A stretch of DNA of 64,000 nucleotides from Caldisphaera sp. (GTDB lineage: Archaea; Thermoproteota; Thermoprotei_A; Sulfolobales; Acidilobaceae). This document shows positions 1 to 59,559 of this stretch, in pieces; positions within the stretch are counted from its first letter, which is position 1, and each line of letters starts with the position of its first letter. Both the position numbers and the translations under genes were made by a program. The notes under the pieces were generated by a model that saw nothing but the letters and a program-made list of their open reading frames with translations, ran no database searches and was not told the DNA's origin. The stretch covers positions 50,675 through 114,674 of the forward strand of contig JBMFKU010000001.1 of the NCBI GenBank assembly GCA_049971805.1. Direction: 5' to 3'.

Positions 1-150
1 TATACAGGATACTGGTATGTCAGCCTTCAAGTATACTACCCAGATTCTATTTGTTAAGAAACATTTTAAGCTTAACATTTAAAAAATATTGATAAGCATG
101 TTACCTATACTCTCTTTAAGTACTTTGGTTTATAATAAATTAATAGAGCG

Positions 151-1311
151 GTGAAGTTAGTGGAAGAAGAAAAAATACCAGGAAAGATGCTAAATAGGAA
201 AATTATGATGAAATTAATGAATGCAATACAAGAAAGTAAGCCGCCTTATAATTTAACGAGAATGGCAGAATTAATGGATATGCCTGATTCAACCTTAGAA
301 AGTTATTTTAGATTGTTGAAAGACAACAAATTTGCAACTGTTGCACTAGATTTTTCTAGGAAGTTGCTGAATTTAAAATATGTGATAGCAATAATTAAAG
401 GTAAATGGCTGGACTCTTCACCGTTAAAGGATTATTGGTTAGTAGGAAGATTTCATACTTCAATAGGTACAATACTAACATATTATTTTCCATCTAACGA
501 AAGTGAATCAATTAACTCTTTAAAAGAAATAACAAATGCAGATGTCTATCAATTTTATGATGTGTATAACTCTAGACCGGATTGGCTTTATTATTATGAT
601 GAGGAAAATGATAAATTATATGATATAGATAAAATATATAAAATGATTGATAATCATCCTCCTATAAATTATGAAATACCAGATCCCCATAGAAAGCCAG
701 ATGCTTTAGATGTTTTGATTTTGGCAGCATTAGGAGCAAATGCTTTAGATAACTATCGTCTATTAATAGAGGCATTTAAAGGTCCAAGCCCTATAAGGAA
801 GTTTAAGCCATTCTCATCATTTAATTATCACTTAAACCACTCAAAATTATACTCAAGAGGAGGAGCTTTTTTACCAAAAGTTGGTTTGAATTCATTTAAT
901 TTAAGGCTAAGCGAACCTATGCCATTTACATCAGGTTATATCCTATTAAGGGGCACAAATAAAAACATACAATACATATTTAAAAGGCTATTAGCGTTTC
1001 CCTTTGTTGGCCAGATATTAGTGGGTGATAATGTAATATATTTTAACTATGTGATTCATGTTAAATATTTTGATACAACAATAGTAAATGAATATAAGCA
1101 ATATGATTGGGATGAGGTATTGCAATTCAATCTTATGGGCCATGATGTAAAAGAAAGGTATCTGTTACCATTTAGAGAATACAATCCTGTATTAAAAGAA
1201 TGGATACCAAATAGTAATTTAGAAGAAATTGCAAGAAGAAAACTAAGACTATCAGAGTTCGAAAATTGGTACAATAAACATTATCTCAAAAATATAGAAA
1301 ATCAAGAATAA
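151..1311 (+). CDS. Putative transcriptional regulator with two HTH/Lrp-AsnC-like modules
   Basis: 386-aa ORF. N-terminal HTH-like segment (NLTRMAELMDMPDSTLESYFRLL) and a second Lrp-like start mid-protein (PDALDVLILAALGANALDNYRLL...FNYHLNH). Confidence 0.55.
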   Translation: MKLVEEEKIPGKMLNRKIMMKLMNAIQESKPPYNLTRMAELMDMPDSTLESYFRLLKDNKFATVALDFSRKLLNLKYVIAIIKGKWLDSSPLKDYWLVGRFHTSIGTILTYYFPSNESESINSLKEITNADVYQFYDVYNSRPDWLYYYDEENDKLYDIDKIYKMIDNHPPINYEIPDPHRKPDALDVLILAALGANALDNYRLLIEAFKGPSPIRKFKPFSSFNYHLNHSKLYSRGGAFLPKVGLNSFNLRLSEPMPFTSGYILLRGTNKNIQYIFKRLLAFPFVGQILVGDNVIYFNYVIHVKYFDTTIVNEYKQYDWDEVLQFNLMGHDVKERYLLPFREYNPVLKEWIPNSNLEEIARRKLRLSEFENWYNKHYLKNIENQE

Positions 1312-1327
1312 AAACTTTTAATAAAAA

Positions 1328-1495
1328 TCATAGAAATATATCGTCTTCTCCAGTTACTGGATTAACAGCTTGTAGATGAGCATGTGTTGCCGGTTGGCCT
1401 AAATGAAGGCTTAATACTAAGCTTATTACAGCTAATATAGCAGGTAATACACTTAAGACCTTTATGCCGTACCTCTTAACTCCTTTTATACTCAT
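1328..1495 (-). CDS. Small 55-aa secreted or membrane peptide (not in ORF track)
   Basis: Hand translation gives MSIKGVKRYGIKVLSVLPAILAVISLVLSLHLGQPATHAHLQAVNPVTGEDDIFL*. ATG at 1495-1493, TGA at 1330-1328, GGTGA RBS at 1506-1502. Basic N-region, hydrophobic H-region, polar tail. Confidence 0.7.
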   Translation of the reverse strand: MSIKGVKRYGIKVLSVLPAILAVISLVLSLHLGQPATHAHLQAVNPVTGEDDIFL

Positions 1496-1688
1496 ACTCT
1501 CTCACCACATCCTAGTAATATTTCAGTTAATCATAAACTATTATCTTTTTTCCCATAGTGTTAAATCAAATTCCCGGAGAAAAGCTTATATAAAACCTTA
1601 TAATAAATCAATATTTTAAAGATTGTAACATTTTCTGTGTAACTTTTTAATATTTCTAATAACTTCTAGATACTATGAAGAGAACTCC

Positions 1689-1985
1689 ATGGAGAGATAC
1701 TTGATCTCCAGCGATGTTGCAGAGATATTTGGCATGAGCAGAATCGGGGTTATGAAATGGATTAGGCAAGGAAAAAATTAGAGCTGCAGAAATTAATGTA
1801 AGTAGAGAATTCCTTATAGTGAGGTTGAAAGACTGCTAAACAGATCTGGAAGAGTTAAACAAATAGCAATTTATGCTAGAGTTTCGTCAAGTTCCCAAAA
1901 TGATGTTTGGAGAGGCAATTAAACTCTTTGAGGGAGTTGATTAGGAAAAATTTCGGTGAGGTTGCACTAATTGAAATTAAAGACA
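1689..1985 (+). pseudogene. tnpA: IS607-family TnpA (MerR-HTH serine recombinase) remnant
   Basis: Reads MERYLISSDVAEIFGMSRIGVMKWIRQGK, then after frameshifts RIPYSEVERLL...KQIAIYARVSSSSQ. YARVSS is the serine-recombinase motif. Broken by frameshifts and truncated. Confidence 0.8.
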
Positions 1986-1988
1986 TAG

Positions 1989-2178
1989 AGGGTATGCTTC
2001 ATGATATGAGGTAAGCCTCTACGTAACTAAATTAAAATAAGGAGTGTGAGGCTTCTCCTTCAGGTCAAGTAAAGATGAGGAGTAGGAGTAACTTTATTCC
2101 CACATAGGGAGGAATCAGAGTAGATCCTATAGGTAACCTCTAGATCTCGGGAACTAATGCCCTTCATGGCGGGGAAGG
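1989..2178 (+). mobile_element. IS607/IS605-type right-end relic, copy A
   Basis: Follows the tnpA remnant and ends in a GCCC-TTCAT-GGCGGGG subterminal hairpin. Aligns by eye with 59361-59550 (shared blocks such as GATATGAGGTAAGCCTCTAC, GATGAGGAGT, GGAGTAACTTTA, CCCACATAGGGAG). Confidence 0.65.
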
Positions 2179-2250
2179 CTGAATCCTTTTTCATTTTAGT
2201 AAAAATCTTTTTATATTCAAATATGCTTAGTTTTTACTGGCAAAGGATGA

Positions 2251-2442
2251 CCTCTCACACCGATGTTGGCTATGCCCAAAAGAGTGGGTGTGATTGCAGA
2301 GATGTGAGCCCCGCGCCGTTGAGCTCGAAGGAGTCTCATGACCCGCATGCAGTTAAGCTTGGCAGATGGTTGAGGGCTAAGTCCCTATGCTCGATCATGA
2401 TTGAAGATAAGATGATTGAAATGAAAGTGTATGGACAAACGG
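2251..2442 (+). mobile_element. Second tnpB 3'-end / right-end relic (IS605/IS1341 type)
   Basis: GC-richer block translating as ...RWLRAKSLCSIMIEDKMIEMKVYGQT, which I recall as a C-terminal tail of Sulfolobales IS605-type TnpB. No RuvC portion remains. Confidence 0.55.
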
Positions 2443-2528
2443 TCGGACTTAGGTCTAACCAATATTTCTTATATGAGAGGCCGTAAAAACATTTAAACAC
2501 ATATTATTTTTGTATAAAAATAATATAT

Positions 2529-3440
2529 TTGGAGATTAAAATGAAAGAAAGAGTTATTCTAAGGTTAACTAAAAAGAAGATATTTAATGAAACAACAGAG
2601 AAAATTAGCCCTCCAAAAGGTACTTTATTTAATATAGGATCGTTTTTAATAAAAAGCTATGAATTAAGTTTAGATTATTTATTGATTCAAAAAATTAATT
2701 ATTCTGATGTCTATGAATATAATGGTATTGTTCAATTATCTCCTCAACCATGGAGTTCTTATTGTGAATGGCACAATGGATCCTTAGAAGAGGCTGATGA
2801 TCCAACAAAAAGGATTTACTGCCCTTTAGAAGCTGAAGGCTTTTGTAGTAAACATAAAAGAACTGATAGAGCAATATATGATCTATGCCTTTCGTATAGA
2901 GGAGAAATTGCTCTACAAGCATGCAAGGAAATTGATAAAAAAATTAAGGGGGAATACGTGGTATACTTAATAGACTATGGGGGAGAAAAACCAAAAGTCG
3001 GAACTACTAGAAAGTTTAGAATTCTTGAAAGAATAGCGGAGCAACCTCATATAATAGCAACAGAATTGTTTATTACAGACAGCCTACATAAAGCAAGATT
3101 GATGGAAATGAACATATCTAAAGATGGTTTTGCAAACGAATTATGGAGACATAGATGGATATCTACGGAAAACATTTATAGCTCAATAATTAAATTAAAT
3201 TCTATATTAAATAATATATCAAAAAAATATTCTCTAAACACTGAATTCAGTTTCTTTAGGGTAAAACAGCCAATTAAAATAGCACCTAAATTGTTAGATT
3301 ATAACTACTTTTATAATAAAGAATTTAAAATAGATAGCTATTGGGGCGGATATAATATAATTTATCTAAACAATCAACCATTTATTTTGCCAGAGAATCA
3401 AATGCTGCATAGAGATAGTCTAATTATAGAAAAAATCTAG
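2529..3440 (+). CDS. DUF2797-like protein (GIY-YIG-like motif)
   Basis: YVVYLIDYGGEKPKVGTTRKFRILERIAEQ motif; Cys/His-rich N-terminal half. Confidence 0.55.
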   Translation: MEIKMKERVILRLTKKKIFNETTEKISPPKGTLFNIGSFLIKSYELSLDYLLIQKINYSDVYEYNGIVQLSPQPWSSYCEWHNGSLEEADDPTKRIYCPLEAEGFCSKHKRTDRAIYDLCLSYRGEIALQACKEIDKKIKGEYVVYLIDYGGEKPKVGTTRKFRILERIAEQPHIIATELFITDSLHKARLMEMNISKDGFANELWRHRWISTENIYSSIIKLNSILNNISKKYSLNTEFSFFRVKQPIKIAPKLLDYNYFYNKEFKIDSYWGGYNIIYLNNQPFILPENQMLHRDSLIIEKI

Positions 3441-3558
3441 GTATAACTTTGAATAAAGTTTATATTGTTTTTATCCTTATGAAAATAATATTTAGCAATA
3501 TTAACTAAATTTATATATCTCATTAATCATTATCTATATGGAAACTTGGTGAACCTAA

Positions 3559-4287
3559 TTGAAATTTACTTCAGTTATACCGGCAGGTGGCGAAGGCTCT
3601 AGATTTAAACCATACACAGATATTGTGCCTAAACCAATGATACCTCTAGGTGAAGAAGAAAAACCAATTTTGGATTATATTGTACAGCATCTATCAAGTA
3701 ATGGTTCAGATCACATCATATTATTAGTTAATTATAAATGGAAATATATAAAAAATTATTTTAGAGATGGAGATAAACATAATGTAAAAATAGATTATAG
3801 CATAGATGATAATATTTATGGAAATACTGGTGGATCTTTATTAAAGGCTTACAAAGAAGGTCTTTTAAATTCGGATATAGCATTAATCTGGTATGGAGAT
3901 ATTATAGCAGGATTAAACCCAAAAGAAGTAATTGATTATCATATAAAAAACAATACTGATGTCACACTTGTGATAGCAAATAAATATCAAATACCCGTAG
4001 GAGTTGCAGAAATAGATGAGAACAACAATATAATAAAATTAAATGAAAAACCATGGCTAGATATAAAAGTTACTATAGGAATATTAACATTAAGGACTTC
4101 AATCCTAGAAAATATAGAAGAAGTTTTAGGAACGAAATTTGATATAATGGGTGATTTAATACCATATATGATAAAAAAGAATTTAAAAATTAAAGGCTTT
4201 ATCTATGATAAGGAATGGTTAGATGTAGGCAGCCTAGAAAGGTATAAAAAGATAGACTCAAAAATATTAAATAAAATTTTATCTTAA
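3559..4287 (+). CDS. Sugar-phosphate nucleotidyltransferase (NTP_transferase family)
   Basis: VIPAGGEGSRFKPYTDIVPKPM signature, GNTGG, WLDVGS. Confidence 0.9.
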   Translation: MKFTSVIPAGGEGSRFKPYTDIVPKPMIPLGEEEKPILDYIVQHLSSNGSDHIILLVNYKWKYIKNYFRDGDKHNVKIDYSIDDNIYGNTGGSLLKAYKEGLLNSDIALIWYGDIIAGLNPKEVIDYHIKNNTDVTLVIANKYQIPVGVAEIDENNNIIKLNEKPWLDIKVTIGILTLRTSILENIEEVLGTKFDIMGDLIPYMIKKNLKIKGFIYDKEWLDVGSLERYKKIDSKILNKILS

Positions 4288-10298: not shown

Positions 10299-13200
10299 TT
10301 AAGAACTCAAACAGCTATTTGTATTTCCTTTAAGTCTTTCAATAAAAATTTCATTATAAATCTTATTTATAAATTCTATAGGATTTAATCTATTGTTTTC
10401 AATTAAGTCAAGTTGCTCCTCTAATAATCTGCTACTCTCTTCTGTTAAAAGATCTTTAAATATTGAGCTCATGAGATCATTGTATATTTCTATGCCAGTT
10501 TTTGTTGGTATAATATATTTTTTCTTCTGGCTTTCTATTACATATCCATGTCTTATATTAGATTCTATAACTTTTGCATAAGTGCTTGGCCTTCCTATAT
10601 TTTTCTTTTTCATAAGCATTACTAAATCTCCATTTTTATACAATTCAATTGAACTACTTTTGTAATACAATACATTTTCTAAATCTATCTCATATTCATT
10701 ATTTAATTCCTTTTTAATCCAGTTTTCAATCTGAGGTTTAGTTATTAGTGAAAATCCTTCCTTTATTATATTTGTAATAAAATTTAATGACTGTTCAAGT
10801 TTTCCTATCTTAATGTTTACTTCTGCTTTTTCATATACTGAGGGTAACATTTGGCTTGCTATGAACCTTTCAAAGATCAATTGATATAATCTATAATGAA
10901 ATTGAGATAATTCAACTGGAACCTTTATGGATCTATCTAGTATAGCCTTTTCTAGATCTTGAGCTGACAATGGTCTAGTCGGCCTAATAGCTTCGTGAGC
11001 CCCCTCATCCCCCCAAGATCTAGGTTTAAAATATTGAGACAAACCTATATTATCTAAATACATCTTGGCTATTTGTATGCCAATTTGAGAAATTCTAGTT
11101 GAATCTGTTCTATGATAAGTTATTAAGCCCGAATAAAACAAATCTTGTGCGAGTTTCATGGTAAACTGGGCTGTAAATCCAAATTTTAAACTTGCATCAT
11201 ATATAAGAGAATCAGTTGTATATGGAGGTAAAGGATTGACTTCTTCGTTCCATATCTTGGTTGTTTTTATAATAGCTTTCTTTTCTTTAGATGCATTATC
11301 TGCTATCTCTTTATCTTTTGTAAAATAATATATATAGCTACCGCTTGGTAATCTAACCTTTAATTTATAGCCCATGCCATTTTTGTATTGGTTGTATCTA
11401 TCTATAACCCAGCCTAAAACTGGGGTTTGTACTCTACCTGCACCCAACCACAACTTGCTATATTTTGATTGTAAGTATTTGCTAGTAGAAAAACCTATCC
11501 ACCTATCATCTATTCTCCTAGAAATTTGGGCATCAACTAACCCTTTTTGTATATTTCCAGGATTTCTTAGTGCTTCCATAACAGCATTTAAAGTAACTTC
11601 ATGAAATGCACTTCTAGAAATATTTTTGTTGTATGGCTTTAAAGCCAAAAATAGATCCCATGAAATCTTTTCACCTTCCCTGTCTGGATCTGTCATTATT
11701 AATATTTTGTCAACTTCAGTTGCCAATTTTTTTATGGTTTGCAATATTGATTCTGAGGTTACTATAGCATTAGACCCGCACCTAGGGCACTTATCTGTAT
11801 CTTGGGTAAATTGATATCCACATTTTAAGCATCTTTTTATTGAAGTATAAATTGGACTTATAGATGAATCAAACATTTTTATCCCATAACATGAGTTATT
11901 GTCGTCTACGGCCAGTTCATATACATGGCCCTTTGATGCAGTTATTGTTAAAAGAAAAACGGTATTTGTTTGGGGATCTACGGTTGTTGTTTCATATATG
12001 TTCAAATTACCCTCCCTTCTTCTCGCAGGTCTACCCCAAAAATTTGCTATTGTTCTTGCCTTTGTCGGGCTCTCAACAATTATCAATTCGCTTACAATAT
12101 TTACCATGTTTCCTCCTTCAATTCTCCTAGTTTCTTCTATTTCTTTTATTACATTGTTTAAATCTAAATCTTTAAAATCTGTAAAATTGCTCATGCTTAT
12201 CCATTTTAATCTATCTTTGATACCTTCCACTAGCTCTGGAATATTATCAATTATAACGGACAATCCTTTTGTCATATGACTATAATATAATCTACTCGTC
12301 CTCCCGCTTGCTTGCAAATATGTAGGGGCATCTGGGGAATAAAGATATAGATTTCCGTTTTCATTGCTTATTACAACTGTTCCAATTTTCAGTCTATCTC
12401 CATTATTAGGTATCAAATTTAGAACAGCATTATAGACTCTGTCAATAGAAGAATCGATTAACTCTTTGAGCGTTTTTAATATACCCTTTGCTTCCATCTC
12501 TCCTTTTAATACTGCTACAACTATGGGGGATTGCTCGCTGTACTTAGATACAAAGCTTTCAAGACTTTTTCTTAAGCTATTAAAGCTCTTATCTTTTTCT
12601 TCTAAAAACATAACAATTCTGAGTAATCTTTGGGGTGAAAGCATTGCTGTCTTTAACTCTAGCTTTCTAGATGGCGTACCAATAAATATTGCATATCTTA
12701 TTATTTCCGGTAGATCAATTCCCCTAACTATAGTCCCATATCTGCTAGCAAGACCAATTACTATATCTGCCTGTCCTTTTTCAAGTTTTTCTATAGCTTT
12801 TCTAGAATTTGTTATAGCCTGAACTACTTTAATTCCTTTATTATTTAATCTTTCTACCAAAGGCTTTGCTAATTTTTTTCCATAGCTCTGGGAAATAAAT
12901 ATTAATCCTCCCTTACCCAATCTTTCTATTAAATTTATTGTTTCTTCAATTACATTATTAGTAATCAGATAAGAATCTACTACATTTCGTAAATAATCTG
13001 TACCACCGCCTATTTCAAACCCTAGAAGTTCCCTGAATACCAGGTGTTTTATTCCCTTTGGTCTACCAGTTGCTGATGCTATAACTAGTTGACCCCTTTC
13101 TGCTTCTTCATTTGTAGAAGTTATTAAATTAACCTGCAAATTTGCTATTTCTTCTTCTAATTGCTTTCTTTTTTCTTCTCTTTTATTTGATAATGCTATA

Positions 13201-14003
13201 GTATAGTCAATTTTTTTCGTAACTAATTTATATGCAGTTTCAACAGAACCTTCATTAAATCCTAATAAAATTAATACTCTATCAATGTTTTTGCTATTCC
13301 TTAAAAGGCTATCAACATCATCAACTATTATTAATTCATATGGAGAATATCTTTTTAATAGATCAAACTTTTTTATTAAATATCCTGGAGTTATTATTAA
13401 TATTTTATAATCGCCTTCATTAATTCTAGATGTCATAAATTCCTTATCACTTTTTTGCATTGAGGAATAATAATAAGCAACTCCATCGTTTAAAAAGCTA
13501 GAAAACTTTCTAGCAGTTTGTACAACAAGATTCTCTGTTGGAGTTAAATACAAAATCTTTCCTTTGCTATTAATGGCCCTATAGGCGGCGTATGATATGA
13601 GGAGAGTTGTTTTTCCAACTCCTGTTGGAGCTACTATGGAAAAGCTTTCTGGATATAATAATCTCCTAGCCCAGCTTTTTTGCGCACTTGAAAGATTAAA
13701 ACTAGTTTTATCTTCAAAAAATTTACTGAAATCTTTATATGATAATTCTAAATAATAAAGCCATGCATATCCGCTTAACTTATTGTTTTTCTTTAAAATA
13801 TCACCAATTATAATTGGATCGTTTTCATCCACTTCTTTTTCTAGGCAAGTATTGCATGGCAAACCTTTCTCTAATCTATTTGAACTTATTTCTCTGCCGC
13901 AATTGGGACACAGATGCCTAAATATTGGATTAAGAGACACTAGCAACCGCCTGAGGGCCATCCTCGGTTTAAACGCTTTTAAGCATCTAAAGTTATTAAG
14001 CAT
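10299..14003 (-). CDS. rgy: Reverse gyrase
   Basis: N-terminal Zn finger CPNCG...PCNTC, helicase motifs APTGVGKT, DDVD and QASGRTSR, TOPRIM ESPTKA, second Zn finger, GLITYHRTDS active-site Tyr. True start probably near 13960 or 13941. Confidence 0.97.
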   Translation of the reverse strand: MLNNFRCLKAFKPRMALRRLLVSLNPIFRHLCPNCGREISSNRLEKGLPCNTCLEKEVDENDPIIIGDILKKNNKLSGYAWLYYLELSYKDFSKFFEDKTSFNLSSAQKSWARRLLYPESFSIVAPTGVGKTTLLISYAAYRAINSKGKILYLTPTENLVVQTARKFSSFLNDGVAYYYSSMQKSDKEFMTSRINEGDYKILIITPGYLIKKFDLLKRYSPYELIIVDDVDSLLRNSKNIDRVLILLGFNEGSVETAYKLVTKKIDYTIALSNKREEKRKQLEEEIANLQVNLITSTNEEAERGQLVIASATGRPKGIKHLVFRELLGFEIGGGTDYLRNVVDSYLITNNVIEETINLIERLGKGGLIFISQSYGKKLAKPLVERLNNKGIKVVQAITNSRKAIEKLEKGQADIVIGLASRYGTIVRGIDLPEIIRYAIFIGTPSRKLELKTAMLSPQRLLRIVMFLEEKDKSFNSLRKSLESFVSKYSEQSPIVVAVLKGEMEAKGILKTLKELIDSSIDRVYNAVLNLIPNNGDRLKIGTVVISNENGNLYLYSPDAPTYLQASGRTSRLYYSHMTKGLSVIIDNIPELVEGIKDRLKWISMSNFTDFKDLDLNNVIKEIEETRRIEGGNMVNIVSELIIVESPTKARTIANFWGRPARRREGNLNIYETTTVDPQTNTVFLLTITASKGHVYELAVDDNNSCYGIKMFDSSISPIYTSIKRCLKCGYQFTQDTDKCPRCGSNAIVTSESILQTIKKLATEVDKILIMTDPDREGEKISWDLFLALKPYNKNISRSAFHEVTLNAVMEALRNPGNIQKGLVDAQISRRIDDRWIGFSTSKYLQSKYSKLWLGAGRVQTPVLGWVIDRYNQYKNGMGYKLKVRLPSGSYIYYFTKDKEIADNASKEKKAIIKTTKIWNEEVNPLPPYTTDSLIYDASLKFGFTAQFTMKLAQDLFYSGLITYHRTDSTRISQIGIQIAKMYLDNIGLSQYFKPRSWGDEGAHEAIRPTRPLSAQDLEKAILDRSIKVPVELSQFHYRLYQLIFERFIASQMLPSVYEKAEVNIKIGKLEQSLNFITNIIKEGFSLITKPQIENWIKKELNNEYEIDLENVLYYKSSSIELYKNGDLVMLMKKKNIGRPSTYAKVIESNIRHGYVIESQKKKYIIPTKTGIEIYNDLMSSIFKDLLTEESSRLLEEQLDLIENNRLNPIEFINKIYNEIFIERLKGNTNSCLSS

Positions 14004-14082: not shown

Positions 14083-16941
14083 TTATGGTTTTTCCCACCA
14101 CCAAAACTCTGATTCTAAACCATTAGTGAACGATGGATTTGATTGCCAAGTCATGCTATTCTGGAACGAATTCATGTATGATCCTAATATCCATGCTTTG
14201 CTTGGAACAACAACATACACCATTATGTAAAGGTCTATAGCCTGTTGTTGTGTTTCGCGTATTATACTAGTGGCATTTGCCCATCCTTGTTCATCAGCTA
14301 AATCAGCTTCATTTATCATATCATTTAGTTGCTTGAATTGTTGGGATTCTTGCCAAATTAAAGCACCAACATATTTATTGCCAGTTGAATTAAATTGTGA
14401 TGAGAGTTGCTCTAAATAGGTAACATTCCATCCATCGGGTCCTCCATAAACTCCTCCTTCTTGATACATAAATGGTAGCCAATACCATGCTAATGGTATC
14501 CCATTCCAATCAAGATAATAAACTGGCATGGGATTAGCTCCAGGAACCATATAGCTTATTATTGTTGAAAACGGCATGTATAATGGAATTGCAGTTATAT
14601 ATGGATCCATTTCATGTAAGTTCTGTGCCCACATTTCTGCTGCTGTGAAATCAACAGTATCACCGCTTGATACAATTATTGGGAAGTTAACGCTTATATT
14701 ATAGAAGCCTGATTCTTCCATTAATTGTTTAGCATATGTCAAGTTAAATGTTGGGCAATTATTTAATTCTGATGGCGGAACAGGATAATCCATACCTTGC
14801 AATAATATACCGCACCATGGTTGACCTAAATTCATATGATATTTCGCATTTCCTAGTATATCATTTATATATTCTGTATAGTTAAATGCATATGCAAATG
14901 CCTCTCTAACTAATGGATTTGCAAAATAATAGCTTGGTATATTATAGCTTGGATTTATCTCTTTCAATAATGTTTCGCTTATATTTAAATTAAATGAAAA
15001 CCACCATTCATTTAATGACGGTTCACTATATATTTTTATTTTTCCTTGGCTTTCTAATTGCTGTAATGTTGGTATATATGGTGAAAATGAGCTTTTTGGA
15101 AAAGTAACTATGTCTGCTTCACCGCTTGCAAGCATATTTAATGCTGTTGTTGGATCTTTAACCCAATCAACAATAACAGTATCGTTAGGTCTTGGGAAAT
15201 AAGTTATATTATTAGGCCAGTATGGATTTGGTTTCAATACGACGCTTTGTCCAGGAGTATATGATGCTATGAAATAAGGACCAGTAAATCCTGCATTTGA
15301 AGAAGGCCATTGAACTTGAGTATTATAGTTTCCAACAATACATGTTTGCTGATATTGATAAAATGATTGAGCTAGTTGAGTATAGTTGCCATCATACAAC
15401 CCGGTTAGGTTTAATCCATCATTAACCTGATTTAACCATTTGGCATCCATTACGTAATCAAAAGTGGTCATCATGTTAAAGAAAAACTCTGGACTTACAG
15501 ATTGTATTAAGTTGAAAGTAATTGTGTTTGTCTGGTTATTATATGATACTGAATTGATTATTTCTTTAGCTCCTAATGAATCATTTGGTGATGTGACAAT
15601 AAATGAAAACATTGTATAATTAGGTACAGTAAATGGAGCCAAGTTGGTTCCACTGCCAGAAGGTACGCCACCAGCACATACTAACATTCTTATCATTGTA
15701 TACCATACATCATAAGCTGTTATAGGGTCCCCATTTGATGCTTTTAATCCTGGTCTTATCTTAAATATGTAAATCGTGTAATTTGGTGATATAGCTCCAT
15801 ATTTGTACCTATTAGTAACATTGCTCCAATTTCCAACTGTTGGTATGTATTCTGCAAGCATAGGTATAAATTGTGTTGTGCTTGATTGATAATACCAAAC
15901 CAAAGAGCCATATATATTGTTTATAATTTCATTACTGACTGTATCTGGGAATAGAGATGGGTCAAATGTAAATGGTCCTCCAGGAACAACTTCAGCATCA
16001 ACTATTACTCCAGGATTAGGTATGCTGGATTGTATAGAATATAAATTAAATTGCATGTTTTCTGATGAAACTGCTACTGTATGGTAGACTGTGTAATTAT
16101 AAGTTTTACCAGATGAAATGTTTTCTGTAACAATTGTTAAGCTTATTGGATATAATCCTGGTGTGTTAAATGAAACTGTTATTGGATTTTTAACAGGTTC
16201 TATATAGCTAATGTTTCCGGATCTAGTTAAGAAAACCTGCTCAGCATAGCCAGTTGAATTTCTTGCAGGTAAAGTGATTTTTGTGCCATTACCAAATGAT
16301 ATTATGTACTCCTTTATTGTTATGTTATTTCCAGAAGGAGGTTGGAGGAAGCCCAAAGACAAATTAAATGGCTGATTAATTGCAATTACAGGACCTTTAT
16401 TAATTGCAATTACAGGAACAGTTATATAATTGGATTCATTGAAGCTTATATATGGTGTTACTACAATTTCTATTAGGTTATTAGATGAAGAACCAATCAA
16501 GTTTCCTTGACTATATATGTTATAATAGACCAAGTATGAGCCAGGATAATTAAATGTTAAATTAAAATATTGATTTGTTACATTAATTATTTTACCTGAT
16601 CCATCATATACCAAGGCGTAATATCCCGGTTTAAAGTTAGGTATTGATACCTCTAATGGTTGACCAGCTAATGCTGAATAACTTTCAGGTATTAGGGGTT
16701 GCAAAGATTGCAAGGTTGTTGTAGAAGTAGTTGTAAATGTAGAAGTAGAAGTAGTTGTAAATGTAGAAGTAGAAGTAGTTGTAGATATACTTTGAGTGCT
16801 TGTAGTTGTAGAAGTAGAAGTTTGCGGCTTCTTTGAATTATAATAGACTAATGAAGCACCTGCAATTACAACTATAACAACAACTATTACAGCCAATACA
16901 GATTTAGATAAATTTCTATTTCTAAAAATTATTCTATCCAT
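14083..16941 (-). CDS. ABC transporter substrate-binding protein (family 5, peptide/nickel type) with Thr/Ser linker and extra N-terminal beta domain
   Basis: N-terminal TM anchor, Thr/Ser tract, then TFDP, YIFKIRPGLKASNGDPITAYDVWY, FTGPYFI, NPLVREAFAYAFNY. Confidence 0.85.
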   Translation of the reverse strand: MDRIIFRNRNLSKSVLAVIVVVIVVIAGASLVYYNSKKPQTSTSTTTSTQSISTTTSTSTFTTTSTSTFTTTSTTTLQSLQPLIPESYSALAGQPLEVSIPNFKPGYYALVYDGSGKIINVTNQYFNLTFNYPGSYLVYYNIYSQGNLIGSSSNNLIEIVVTPYISFNESNYITVPVIAINKGPVIAINQPFNLSLGFLQPPSGNNITIKEYIISFGNGTKITLPARNSTGYAEQVFLTRSGNISYIEPVKNPITVSFNTPGLYPISLTIVTENISSGKTYNYTVYHTVAVSSENMQFNLYSIQSSIPNPGVIVDAEVVPGGPFTFDPSLFPDTVSNEIINNIYGSLVWYYQSSTTQFIPMLAEYIPTVGNWSNVTNRYKYGAISPNYTIYIFKIRPGLKASNGDPITAYDVWYTMIRMLVCAGGVPSGSGTNLAPFTVPNYTMFSFIVTSPNDSLGAKEIINSVSYNNQTNTITFNLIQSVSPEFFFNMMTTFDYVMDAKWLNQVNDGLNLTGLYDGNYTQLAQSFYQYQQTCIVGNYNTQVQWPSSNAGFTGPYFIASYTPGQSVVLKPNPYWPNNITYFPRPNDTVIVDWVKDPTTALNMLASGEADIVTFPKSSFSPYIPTLQQLESQGKIKIYSEPSLNEWWFSFNLNISETLLKEINPSYNIPSYYFANPLVREAFAYAFNYTEYINDILGNAKYHMNLGQPWCGILLQGMDYPVPPSELNNCPTFNLTYAKQLMEESGFYNISVNFPIIVSSGDTVDFTAAEMWAQNLHEMDPYITAIPLYMPFSTIISYMVPGANPMPVYYLDWNGIPLAWYWLPFMYQEGGVYGGPDGWNVTYLEQLSSQFNSTGNKYVGALIWQESQQFKQLNDMINEADLADEQGWANATSIIRETQQQAIDLYIMVYVVVPSKAWILGSYMNSFQNSMTWQSNPSFTNGLESEFWWWEKP
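16721..16783. repeat. 24-bp coding tandem repeat (about 2.6 copies) encoding the Thr/Ser linker
   Basis: GTAGAAGTAGTTGTAAATGTAGAA at 16721 and 16745, partial at 16769. Confidence 0.9.
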
Positions 16942-59292: not shown

Positions 59293-59559
59293 CCTGCCTT
59301 TAAGGCTGGGTAATGCTTTTAAGGTTTGTTTTTTAAATAATTAGATATTAATAACCATCAAGGGTATTCTTCACGATATGAGGTAAGCCTCTACTCGTTA
59401 GCAAATTAAAGAAAAAGGAGGGTGAGATTTCTCTCTTAGGTCAAATAAGGATGAGGAGTTGGAGTAACTTTACTCCCACATAGGGAGAAATCAAAGTAGC
59501 TCCTATAGAAACCCTAAGACCTCAGGAACCCTTGCCCTTTAAGGCGGGACAGATGTCAG
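59293..59559 (+). mobile_element. Non-autonomous IS200/IS605-like miniature element, copy B
   Basis: Similar hairpins at both ends (CCTGCCTTTAAGGCTGGG at 59293-310, CCCTTGCCCTTTAAGGCGGG at 59529-48, ending TCAG). Interior 59361-59550 homologous to 1989-2178. No ORF. Confidence 0.7.

Follow-up and report, generated by a model that had tools for sequence, protein, structure and literature searches.

A 64,000-nucleotide (nt) stretch of the Caldisphaera sp. contig JBMFKU010000001.1 (assembly GCA_049971805.1, positions 50,675 to 114,674 of the forward strand; hereafter the window) carries near its left end two genes arranged tail to tail. The plus-strand gene encodes a 386-amino-acid (aa) protein with the predicted fold of a tandem Lrp/AsnC regulator, and the minus-strand gene encodes a 55-aa protein with the features of a secretory pre-peptide. 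The TAA stop of the former (1309-1311) and the TGA stop of the latter (1328-1330) are 16 bp apart. A first-pass annotation, made by a model from the sequence letters, had singled out these genes as a possible archaeal peptide-signalling pair. The minus-strand open reading frame (ORF) that it had placed at 1495-1328, the 6-nt spacing of its GGTGA and the gap at 1312-1327 between the two stops were all verified on the sequence. The small ORF had also been called unannotated; it is indeed absent from the first-stage ORF track, but its orthologues are annotated as hypothetical proteins, in C. lagunensis as Calag_0813 (WP_015232451.1). The features of the locus are collected in Table 1.

Table 1. 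Features of the convergent gene pair and its right flank, in window coordinates (wHTH, winged helix-turn-helix; AF2, AlphaFold2 model; H, helix; E, strand; a slash marks a predicted cleavage site).
Feature	Position	Strand	Details
Gene of the 386-aa tandem Lrp/AsnC-like protein, predicted (wHTH+RAM)x2	151..1311	+	GTG start, TAA stop; presumed DNA-binding regulator, candidate receptor
First wHTH, aa 16-58	196..324	+	AF2 helices H16-28, H35-42, H46-58
First RAM-like beta/alpha domain, aa 62-140, degenerate	334..570	+	AF2 E62-68, E75-83, E96-102, E106-114, H119-128, E131-140
Second wHTH, aa 185-234	703..852	+	AF2 H185-196, H198-210, H222-234
Second RAM domain, aa 259-327, canonical beta-alpha-beta-beta-alpha-beta	925..1131	+	AF2 E259-267, H270-282, E286-292, E295-303, H304-315, E322-327
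Spacer between the convergent stops, 16 bp	1312..1327	.	Minus strand TTTTTATTAAAAGTTT; T5 right after the small-ORF stop
Gene of the 55-aa precursor, including stop	1328..1495	-	ATG start, TGA at 1328-1330; product MSIKGVKRYGIKVLSVLPAILAVISLVLSLHLGQPATHAHLQAVNPVTGEDDIFL
Predicted acidic tail, 12 aa, candidate mature peptide	1331..1366	-	VNPVTGEDDIFL; 16 aa, HLQAVNPVTGEDDIFL, if cut at the first site
Signal-peptide-like leader, codons 1-43	1367..1495	-	n-region MSIKGVKRYGIK (+4), 18-aa hydrophobic core, c-region THA/H, LQA/V
Shine-Dalgarno GGTGA	1502..1506	-	6 nt 5' of the small-ORF ATG
TATA-box-like element	1586..1595	-	TTTTATATAA, about 91-100 nt 5' of the small-ORF ATG
Degenerate IS607-type tnpA fragment	~1689-2014	+, frames mixed	MerR-like HTH MERYLISSDVAEIFGMSRIGVMKWIRQGK, serine-recombinase N-terminus IAIYARVSSSSQ...LERQ

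The small ORF is a real gene under purifying selection. Among nine distinct nucleotide versions from Caldisphaera, the pairwise ratio of non-synonymous to synonymous divergence (dN/dS) was 0.05-0.25 at a dS of 0.5-2, indicating clear purifying selection on the reading frame. The ORF, 55-56 aa long, was kept in the same convergent position in every Caldisphaera locus fetched, and the Caldisphaera contigs found via the peptide also carried the regulator. Its design is rare in its surroundings; only one of the 105 ORFs of 40-70 aa in the window, this one, combines a basic N-region, at least 14 hydrophobic residues and an acidic tail. When the upstream regions of seven Caldisphaera loci were aligned, GGTGAGA was identical in all seven, and a block reading (T)TATATAA or TTATTTAA was present in 7/7 about 95 nt before the ATG. 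Judged by the archaeal TATA consensus, the copy of this block in the window is a candidate promoter of the small gene itself, which would give a leader of about 65 nt. Archaeal transcription terminates at oligo-T tracts, and on this basis the T5 tract after the small-ORF stop is a plausible candidate terminator. With its conserved GGTGAGA, its conserved TATA-like block and the T5 after its stop, the small ORF thus looks like a self-contained transcription unit. A scan for bacterial sigma-70 promoters and terminators gave counts at the level of shuffled sequence, these bacterial models being uninformative for an archaeon; no Rfam RNA family matched within window positions 1-4000, and the locus was found in none of the RNA runs among which it was sought.

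The 386-aa protein belongs to a narrow family that is labelled 'hypothetical protein' in Caldisphaera. Against Pfam, the window protein yielded nothing significant, all matches being below the cut-offs and none to TPR, and a single-sequence scan of genome contigs gave no matches. A profile search of 1.8 billion representative proteins returned 16 proteins at E<=0.001, of which about 12 were full-length relatives (355-459 aa, 17-22% identity). Contig searches for distant regulators were run from the sub-alignments A4 and A5, A3 being too diverse for search patterns. The three scans of viral contigs found no relatives, and no second family member was found within the window.

The fold of this protein was predicted with AlphaFold2. 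A run with only five close sequences reached a pLDDT of 37 and was replaced by one with a 15-sequence alignment, which gave a pLDDT of 80.8 and a pTM of 0.82. The best full-length Foldseek matches of this model were to NirDL (4ch7, E 1e-8; 4czc, E 9e-8), in an alignment to the tandem-Lrp fold that spans the first RAM-like domain too, followed by many single Lrp/AsnC regulators. In a profile search of the PDB sequences, positions 189-330 aligned to the entire Lrp proteins PH0140, LrpA and ST1022 (E~1e-5), and the N-terminus gave a weak helix-turn-helix (HTH) match of the KdgR/IclR type. Relatives matched HTH_11, HTH_24 or MarR_2 at the position aligned to the first wHTH; the relative P0021 was above the Pfam cut-offs, with HTH_11 at residues 29-71 and HTH_5, HTH_24 and HTH_AsnC-type matches at 197-236. 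There is also a conserved C-terminal motif, LPFR[EN]Y[ND]P..K.W, and a long terminal helix. No AsnC_trans_reg2 or NirdL-like HTH Pfam match was found in the 386-aa protein or its relatives. The description of the protein as Lrp-like with two HTHs, given in the first-pass annotation, is thus confirmed by the model, the profile searches and the Pfam matches of P0021. According to the model it has a tandem Lrp fold, (wHTH+RAM)x2, in which the first RAM domain is degenerate and the second is the candidate ligand-binding module. By sequence profile it is closer to true Lrp regulators than to the enzymes NirDL/AhbAB, and genes of haem synthesis are absent from its surroundings; it is presumed to be a DNA-binding transcription regulator.

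A word-based search with the peptide reached Caldisphaera sequences only, so more distant peptides were traced through the neighbours of the regulators. An adjacent small ORF of 44-56 aa was found in four deep regulator subfamilies related at 19-25% identity, in Caldisphaera, Acidilobaceae and Desulfurococcales. In group 2, the 436-aa regulators of Acidilobaceae (locus L015 and nine metagenome loci), a convergent ORF of 44-47 codons was present in 10/10 loci with enough downstream DNA, and in most of them its stop overlaps the regulator stop by 4 nt. Some of the group-2 ORFs have longer in-frame upstream extensions; two example precursors, with the predicted cleavage site marked by a slash, are MKVEVVKALPVLVRLLPVLLALLLLAVGVAEA/GGPKGPPDFDPF and MRKALITILPTLLRLAPILLVLLLVALGYAQA/DGPKGPPDFDPV. 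In group 3 (P0013 type, Desulfurococcales), small ORFs were found at L016/L017 (...YAIPIAVAVIALSAS/VQPTSGDPKDDPFTF) and at L020 (...YAIPIAVIAAAAVILPQSGDPQEVDDLSI). In group 4 (P0021), a 56-aa ORF, MSLRVKVLKWVNDHKKLVVTATKLAILALVATAMQTIA/DDGGEAIIQNRELDDEWG, lies just upstream of the regulator and is co-directional with it, so that the adjacency was kept despite the switch in arrangement. The other neighbours differ wholly by lineage, being genes of acetate utilisation and an amidohydrolase in Caldisphaera, pyrB (OTCase) and a MiaB-like gene in group 2, and POR in group 3. Inherited synteny therefore fails to explain why the regulator and the small ORF are adjacent. The peptide groups may share a common descent or may be analogous only.

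Each of the elements that the first-pass annotation had read into the peptide, namely a basic N-region, an 18-residue core, the sites THA/ and LQA/ and a short acidic tail, is present in the 55-aa product. The uncharged core runs for 18 residues from V13 to L30, and both THA/H and LQA/V obey the -3/-1 rule and are kept in every Caldisphaera orthologue. The corresponding candidate products of the 56-aa C. lagunensis precursor are INPVTGDDDIFV or HLQAINPVTGDDDIFV. We then compared 17 peptides from Caldisphaera and the other groups by a rule-based check of their features. The net charge of the n-region was +2 to +5, and the longest uncharged stretch was 11-19 aa, mostly 16-18, which is short for a stable membrane anchor. 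Small-x-small sites (AEA, AQA, AGA, SAS, TIA, THA, LQA) follow right after the hydrophobic stretch in all groups. The tails have a net charge of -2 to -6, measure 12-18 aa in the distant homologues, and end in an acidic cluster with hydrophobic or aromatic residues (DDIFL, DFDPF, DDPFTF, DDLSI, DDEWG). A Sec-type (class I) signal has a positively charged n-region, a hydrophobic h-region and a c-region whose -3 and -1 residues are small; all of these features were present in 17/17. Cleavage at the last site would give a 12-aa product both in Caldisphaera and in group 2 (GGPKGPPDFDPF; [GD]GPKGPPDFDPF). The small ORF would thus encode a signal-peptide-like precursor, for which export and cleavage are predicted.

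Three other types of export signal were considered and set aside. For a class III (prepilin/archaellin-type) signal, inspection by eye showed that the KG at residues 4-5 of the window peptide precedes the charged VKRYGIK and not the core, and that group 2 has no matching G ahead of the core; the pilin-like subunit that the first-pass annotation had named as a competing outcome is therefore not borne out, class III signals being absent from the window and group-2 peptides. A double-glycine leader was rejected because the leaders are strongly hydrophobic, GG occurs in group 2 only (AEAGG), and no C39 ABC transporter was seen at any locus. As for a Tat signal, the Caldisphaera KRYG.K/RRYGLK resembles RRxFLK, yet it is missing from the other groups.

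Variation between closely related strains was found to concentrate in the tail. Five group-2 loci are 96-100% identical over 2.4 kb, whereas a 50-nt segment with the tail is 72-84% identical between tail types. Between L027 and L029, 0/117 nt differ in the leader as against 13/27 in the tail (4 synonymous, 9 non-synonymous), and 14 of the 61 mismatches of the whole locus fall inside the 30 nt of tail plus stop (P=1e-15). The group-2 tails read KMPPDFDPF, KGPPDFDPF, KGEMDADPS and KGEMDFDPY; their D-x-D-P frame is kept while the other positions change. In the 90% clusters of three subfamilies, substitutions occurred only in the tail region, mostly at the last residues (F/L, V/L, SI/AI/TV); in a fourth 90% cluster the leader varies as well.

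A similar picture emerged from the Caldisphaera loci L007 and L011, which are 98.2% identical over 5.4 kb, with 100 mismatches. Eleven of these mismatches lie in the post-core region of the peptide (P=4e-7), and 9/10 differences within the peptide gene sit in its 22 post-core codons. A further 56/100 fall within 240 nt of the regulator gene (gene nt ~475-714, aa ~159-238), a tract covering the second wHTH (P=1.6e-51). In this tract the L011 regulator is 96-98% identical to the L006 lineage, to which it is otherwise 50-80% identical, indicating import by recombination. By these identities, coexisting Caldisphaera lineages swap the second-wHTH segment through recombination. Both Caldisphaera tail alleles were found together in single metagenomes, namely 3300005859 (L007 and L013) and ERZ27249342 (L010 and L014). 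Alleles that coexist, old divergence that is confined to the presumed signal and a presumed receptor that swaps a domain resemble, by analogy, what is known of pherotype loci.

Since the pairing recurs in distant hot-spring archaea and the tail varies between near-identical strains, the pair is a credible candidate for a peptide signalling system. The interpretation that we prefer, with slightly less than even confidence, is that an exported acidic peptide, processed by signal peptidase, is sensed after uptake by the tandem Lrp-like regulator. The cassette would then consist of two genes, one for a cytoplasmic tandem Lrp/AsnC DNA-binding protein and the other for a convergently encoded 55-aa Sec-type pre-peptide. 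The leader would bring the precursor to the membrane with its N-terminus inside, signal peptidase I would cut after THA or LQA, and an acidic peptide of 12-16 residues (VNPVTGEDDIFL in its shorter form) would be freed outside the cell and accumulate there. The peptide would re-enter through candidate Opp/Dpp-type SBP_bac_5 ABC importers and bind the regulator, whereupon transcription would shift. We infer each of these steps, from export and the cleavage site to uptake, binding and regulatory output. A gene of the SBP_bac_5 (Opp/Dpp) family divergently adjoins the peptide gene in C. lagunensis and L004, and a copy with 51% identity to it is found at 14083-16941 in the window, 12.6 kb from the peptide gene. 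More speculatively, the variable last residue (L/V/I/M/F) with its free carboxylate recalls the amino-acid ligands of RAM domains, and the acid-labile Asp-Pro bonds of the group-2 tails could limit the lifetime of a signal in hot acid.

The wider claim is held more tentatively still: that this would be the first quorum-sensing-like system in Archaea to use a ribosomally encoded peptide. A Sec-exported pre-peptide of 44-56 aa would give rise to an acidic peptide of about 12 aa with a dedicated tandem Lrp/AsnC receptor, of a class unrelated to the TPR receptors of Firmicutes, and natural hot-spring populations of Acidilobales and Desulfurococcales would maintain both tail alleles that resemble pherotypes and the swapping of receptor domains.

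Several observations weigh against signalling. The first concern the pairing. The check proposed in the first-pass annotation, whether homologues of the regulator have a small signal-peptide ORF beside them, came out mostly in favour, with the four subfamilies described above, but the ORF is not present throughout the family. The P0022 type (L021-25, L043) has no small ORF, a 113-aa Nitro_FeMo-Co protein coming next; this type is a second paralogue in at least one metagenome-assembled genome that also has the P0013 type. P0016 (L041) likewise has none and divergently adjoins two oligo_HPY ATPases and an OppC-like permease (Opp-type ABC; L041 1-2752). Downstream of the P0014 regulator, at L018 5196-5285 (-), lies a 29-codon ORF that ends in ...GGPRARPGVPFPDPV and has no hydrophobic leader; with its group-2-like tail it has the look of a peptide gene in decay. 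In C. lagunensis, the regulator itself (Calag_0812 region, L001 5721-6864) is split into ORFs of 111 aa and 287 aa while Calag_0813 is intact. This frameshift is a 1-nt (+1) insertion in a AGAAAAATTTTT run, and the GenBank genome and two independent Logan read-set assemblies of C. lagunensis DSM 15908 all show it in identical form.

Other points concern the two proteins and their variation. Most RRNPP pairs do not have the convergent arrangement of these genes. In Caldisphaera there is strong conservation of the cytoplasmic N-region, MSI[KR]G.[KR]RYG, for which a simple signal peptide would have no need, and a hydrophobic stretch of 16-19 aa could serve as a signal anchor. The Lrp fold can also be that of an enzyme, as in NirDL, and the known ligands of RAM domains are amino acids, not peptides. 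The variable tail of the first-pass annotation stood up to a degree: near-identical strains differ most in the tail (L027/L029, L007/L011), but across Caldisphaera species the tail is conserved as [NSA]PV[TS]G[ED]DDIF, with variation at the last residue and a few others. Strict co-variation of tail and receptor was not supported, as L006 and L011 share the wHTH2 tract and differ in their tails; the hot spots may therefore be recombination tracts and not the product of coevolution. In group 2, the sample of five strains is too small to part co-variation from shared ancestry.

The main rival interpretation, which we consider unlikely though serious, is that the small protein stays uncleaved in the membrane. 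It would be a single-pass protein with its N-terminus inside and its acidic tail outside, serving the regulator as an anchor or anti-regulator, for instance by sequestering it via the conserved basic N-region, or it would be the main target gene of the regulator, with no diffusible signal in either case. The 16-19-aa hydrophobic stretch of most peptides, the strong conservation of the cytoplasmic N-region in Caldisphaera and the conserved pairing with the regulator would all fit such an arrangement, as would a weak, ferredoxin-like Foldseek resemblance to NapD bound to a signal peptide (rank 44). Bacteria are known to have small membrane proteins that modulate regulators, MgrB being an example. 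However, the small-x-small sites are kept directly after the hydrophobic stretch in all groups, a product of the same length, 12 aa, is predicted in two of them, and the 11-16 uncharged residues of several members are short for a stable anchor. Variation in the extracellular last residues would also be hard to explain if it were the cytoplasmic side that interacts.

It is improbable, in our estimate, that the peptide is exported and cleaved but, instead of being sensed by the regulator, serves another extracellular purpose, such as archaeocin-like antagonism, adhesion or metal binding, the Lrp-like protein controlling its expression or giving immunity. The export-type architecture is as expected under this interpretation, and rapid allele-like variation of tails among coexisting strains is typical of antagonism loci too. 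Known antimicrobial peptides are usually cationic or hydrophobic, though, whereas the 12-aa peptide has a net charge of -3; moreover, the neighbours of the pair vary by lineage, and genes for immunity, modification or dedicated export are not conserved among them.

Less probable again is that the two genes are unrelated neighbours, held together by inherited synteny, the small protein being an independent membrane or secreted protein. The regulator subfamilies without a small ORF, the frameshifted C. lagunensis regulator beside an intact peptide gene, and the convergent orientation, by which the genes are not co-transcribed, could all be understood in this way. Nevertheless, the adjacency lasts at 19-25% regulator identity, where every other neighbour differs, it survives the co-directional rearrangement in P0021, and the stops overlap by 4 nt in many loci. 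Very improbable, finally, is a precursor of the type of ribosomally synthesised and post-translationally modified peptides (RiPPs), with the 386-aa protein as its processing or recognition factor (the wHTH as RiPP recognition element, or an enzyme with the Lrp fold of NirDL/AhbAB): peptide binding by wHTH domains is known from RiPP systems, the region exchanged in the regulator is a wHTH and the top structural match is the enzyme NirDL, but the sequence profiles match true Lrp regulators and neither NirDL nor AhbAB, HTH1 of the relatives looks like a canonical DNA-binding domain, no modifying enzymes are conserved near, and the leader is hydrophobic and of Sec type, unlike RiPP leaders.

In the window and the Caldisphaera loci, the neighbours of the pair include genes for an amidohydrolase, an acetyl-CoA synthetase, an acetate channel, a DUF2797 protein and an NTP-transferase. 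The first-pass annotation had taken the locus to border insertion sequence (IS) relics and hence to be an accessory region. An IS relic, the IS607-type tnpA, is real; the pair, however, lies in conserved synteny and the relic is local, so that 'accessory region' was wrong. The tnpA fragment is interrupted by frameshifts and stops, ends after about 110 codons and is specific to the window genome. Its site is taken by a 904-aa SBP_bac_5 gene in C. lagunensis and L004 and by an SBP_bac_5 or DUF2797-like gene in other Caldisphaera. A repeat of about 210 nt with 80% identity was found at window positions 1968-2173 and 59338-59548, the second copy lying in the intergenic region that separates the gene of a P-type ATPase from that of a membrane protein; possible identities of the repeat are an IS end, a miniature inverted-repeat transposable element and a remnant of an IS-associated RNA. 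At 2529-3440 (+), the window encodes a protein of 303 aa whose match to DUF2797 is weak and does not reach the cut-off (E 0.0014); several Caldisphaera contigs show it in synteny with the pair.

Two further observations were made on the way. The window carries a reverse gyrase gene at 10299-14003 (-), with helicase, Toprim, topoisomerase IA and reverse gyrase zinc finger domains, which fits a hyperthermophilic host. In two Acidilobaceae-type contigs (L015 8009-8176 (-) and L018 7630-7785 (-)), conserved and very unusual ORFs of 51-55 aa adjoin the MiaB-like radical-SAM gene; they encode nearly all glutamate with Y, W and F (MVARRRFEEEEEEEEEYWEEEE...).

A 2025 study of Haloferax describes archaeal cell-cell communication as little known and the signal in that case as unidentified (PMC12240190). 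If the proposed pair does signal, it would be a genetically defined archaeal signal and receptor, and the design of a regulator plus an adjacent pre-peptide would have had an independent origin on an Lrp/AsnC scaffold. Peptides would join amino acids among the ligands of RAM or wHTH modules, and hot-spring populations would offer a natural case of allele diversification. The proposal can be tested directly, as C. lagunensis is available in culture, peptides of this length can be synthesised and only one soluble protein makes up the regulator. Even without signalling, a pair of small protein and regulator conserved at this depth would be a new functional module.

In the literature, as far as our incomplete coverage reaches, neither this pair nor any other peptide-receptor system of archaea was found described. 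The pair was set beside known systems that share parts of its design. With MgrB and its partner PhoQ it shares a protein of about 50 aa that has a single hydrophobic segment, carries a short tail on the outside and is functionally linked to a regulatory protein; the partners in that type are membrane sensor kinases and no processing takes place, whereas the 386-aa partner is soluble and the hydrophobic segment of the peptide is followed by a conserved motif of cleavage type. Among type I toxin-antitoxin toxins, the acidic, cleavable-looking and conserved tail would be atypical, although the two mRNAs may overlap here at their 3' ends. The siroheme decarboxylases NirDL and AhbA-AhbB provide the best full-length structural match, their Lrp/AsnC fold being tandem or heterodimeric and comparable in size; they differ in that the identity is 9-11% without a sequence-profile match, no haem or d1 genes lie near the pair, and NirDL is an enzyme.

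The Lrp/AsnC regulators (LrpA, PH0140, ST1022/Grp) are ligand-responsive transcription factors whose known ligands are free amino acids. The second half of the 386-aa protein has their wHTH+RAM module, both by sequence profile (E~1e-5) and by fold; unlike them, it joins two modules in one chain, the first RAM domain is degenerate, and the C-terminus carries the LPFR[EN]Y[ND]P..K.W motif and the long terminal helix. By model and profile searches, the protein belongs to the Lrp/AsnC structural superfamily, where its tandem form is unusual. The RRNPP systems of Firmicutes and phages (Rap-Phr, NprR-NprX, PlcR-PapR, PrgX, AimR-AimP) likewise place the gene of a cytoplasmic regulator beside that of a Sec-type pre-peptide of about 40-60 codons. 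As in those systems, the short C-terminal part would be the signal and is where variation falls, alleles coexist in one community in the manner of pherotypes, and Opp-family binding proteins are encoded in the genome. They differ from the present pair in that its receptor would be a tandem Lrp/AsnC protein (wHTH+RAM) and not a TPR protein, its host is one of the Thermoprotei, its genes are convergent and often overlap at their stops, its predicted peptide is strongly acidic, and it is known from sequence alone. Because the defining TPR receptor is absent by AF2, Foldseek and the PDB profile search, the cassette is not a member of RRNPP; if it signals at all, it would by analogy be RRNPP-like in its logic.

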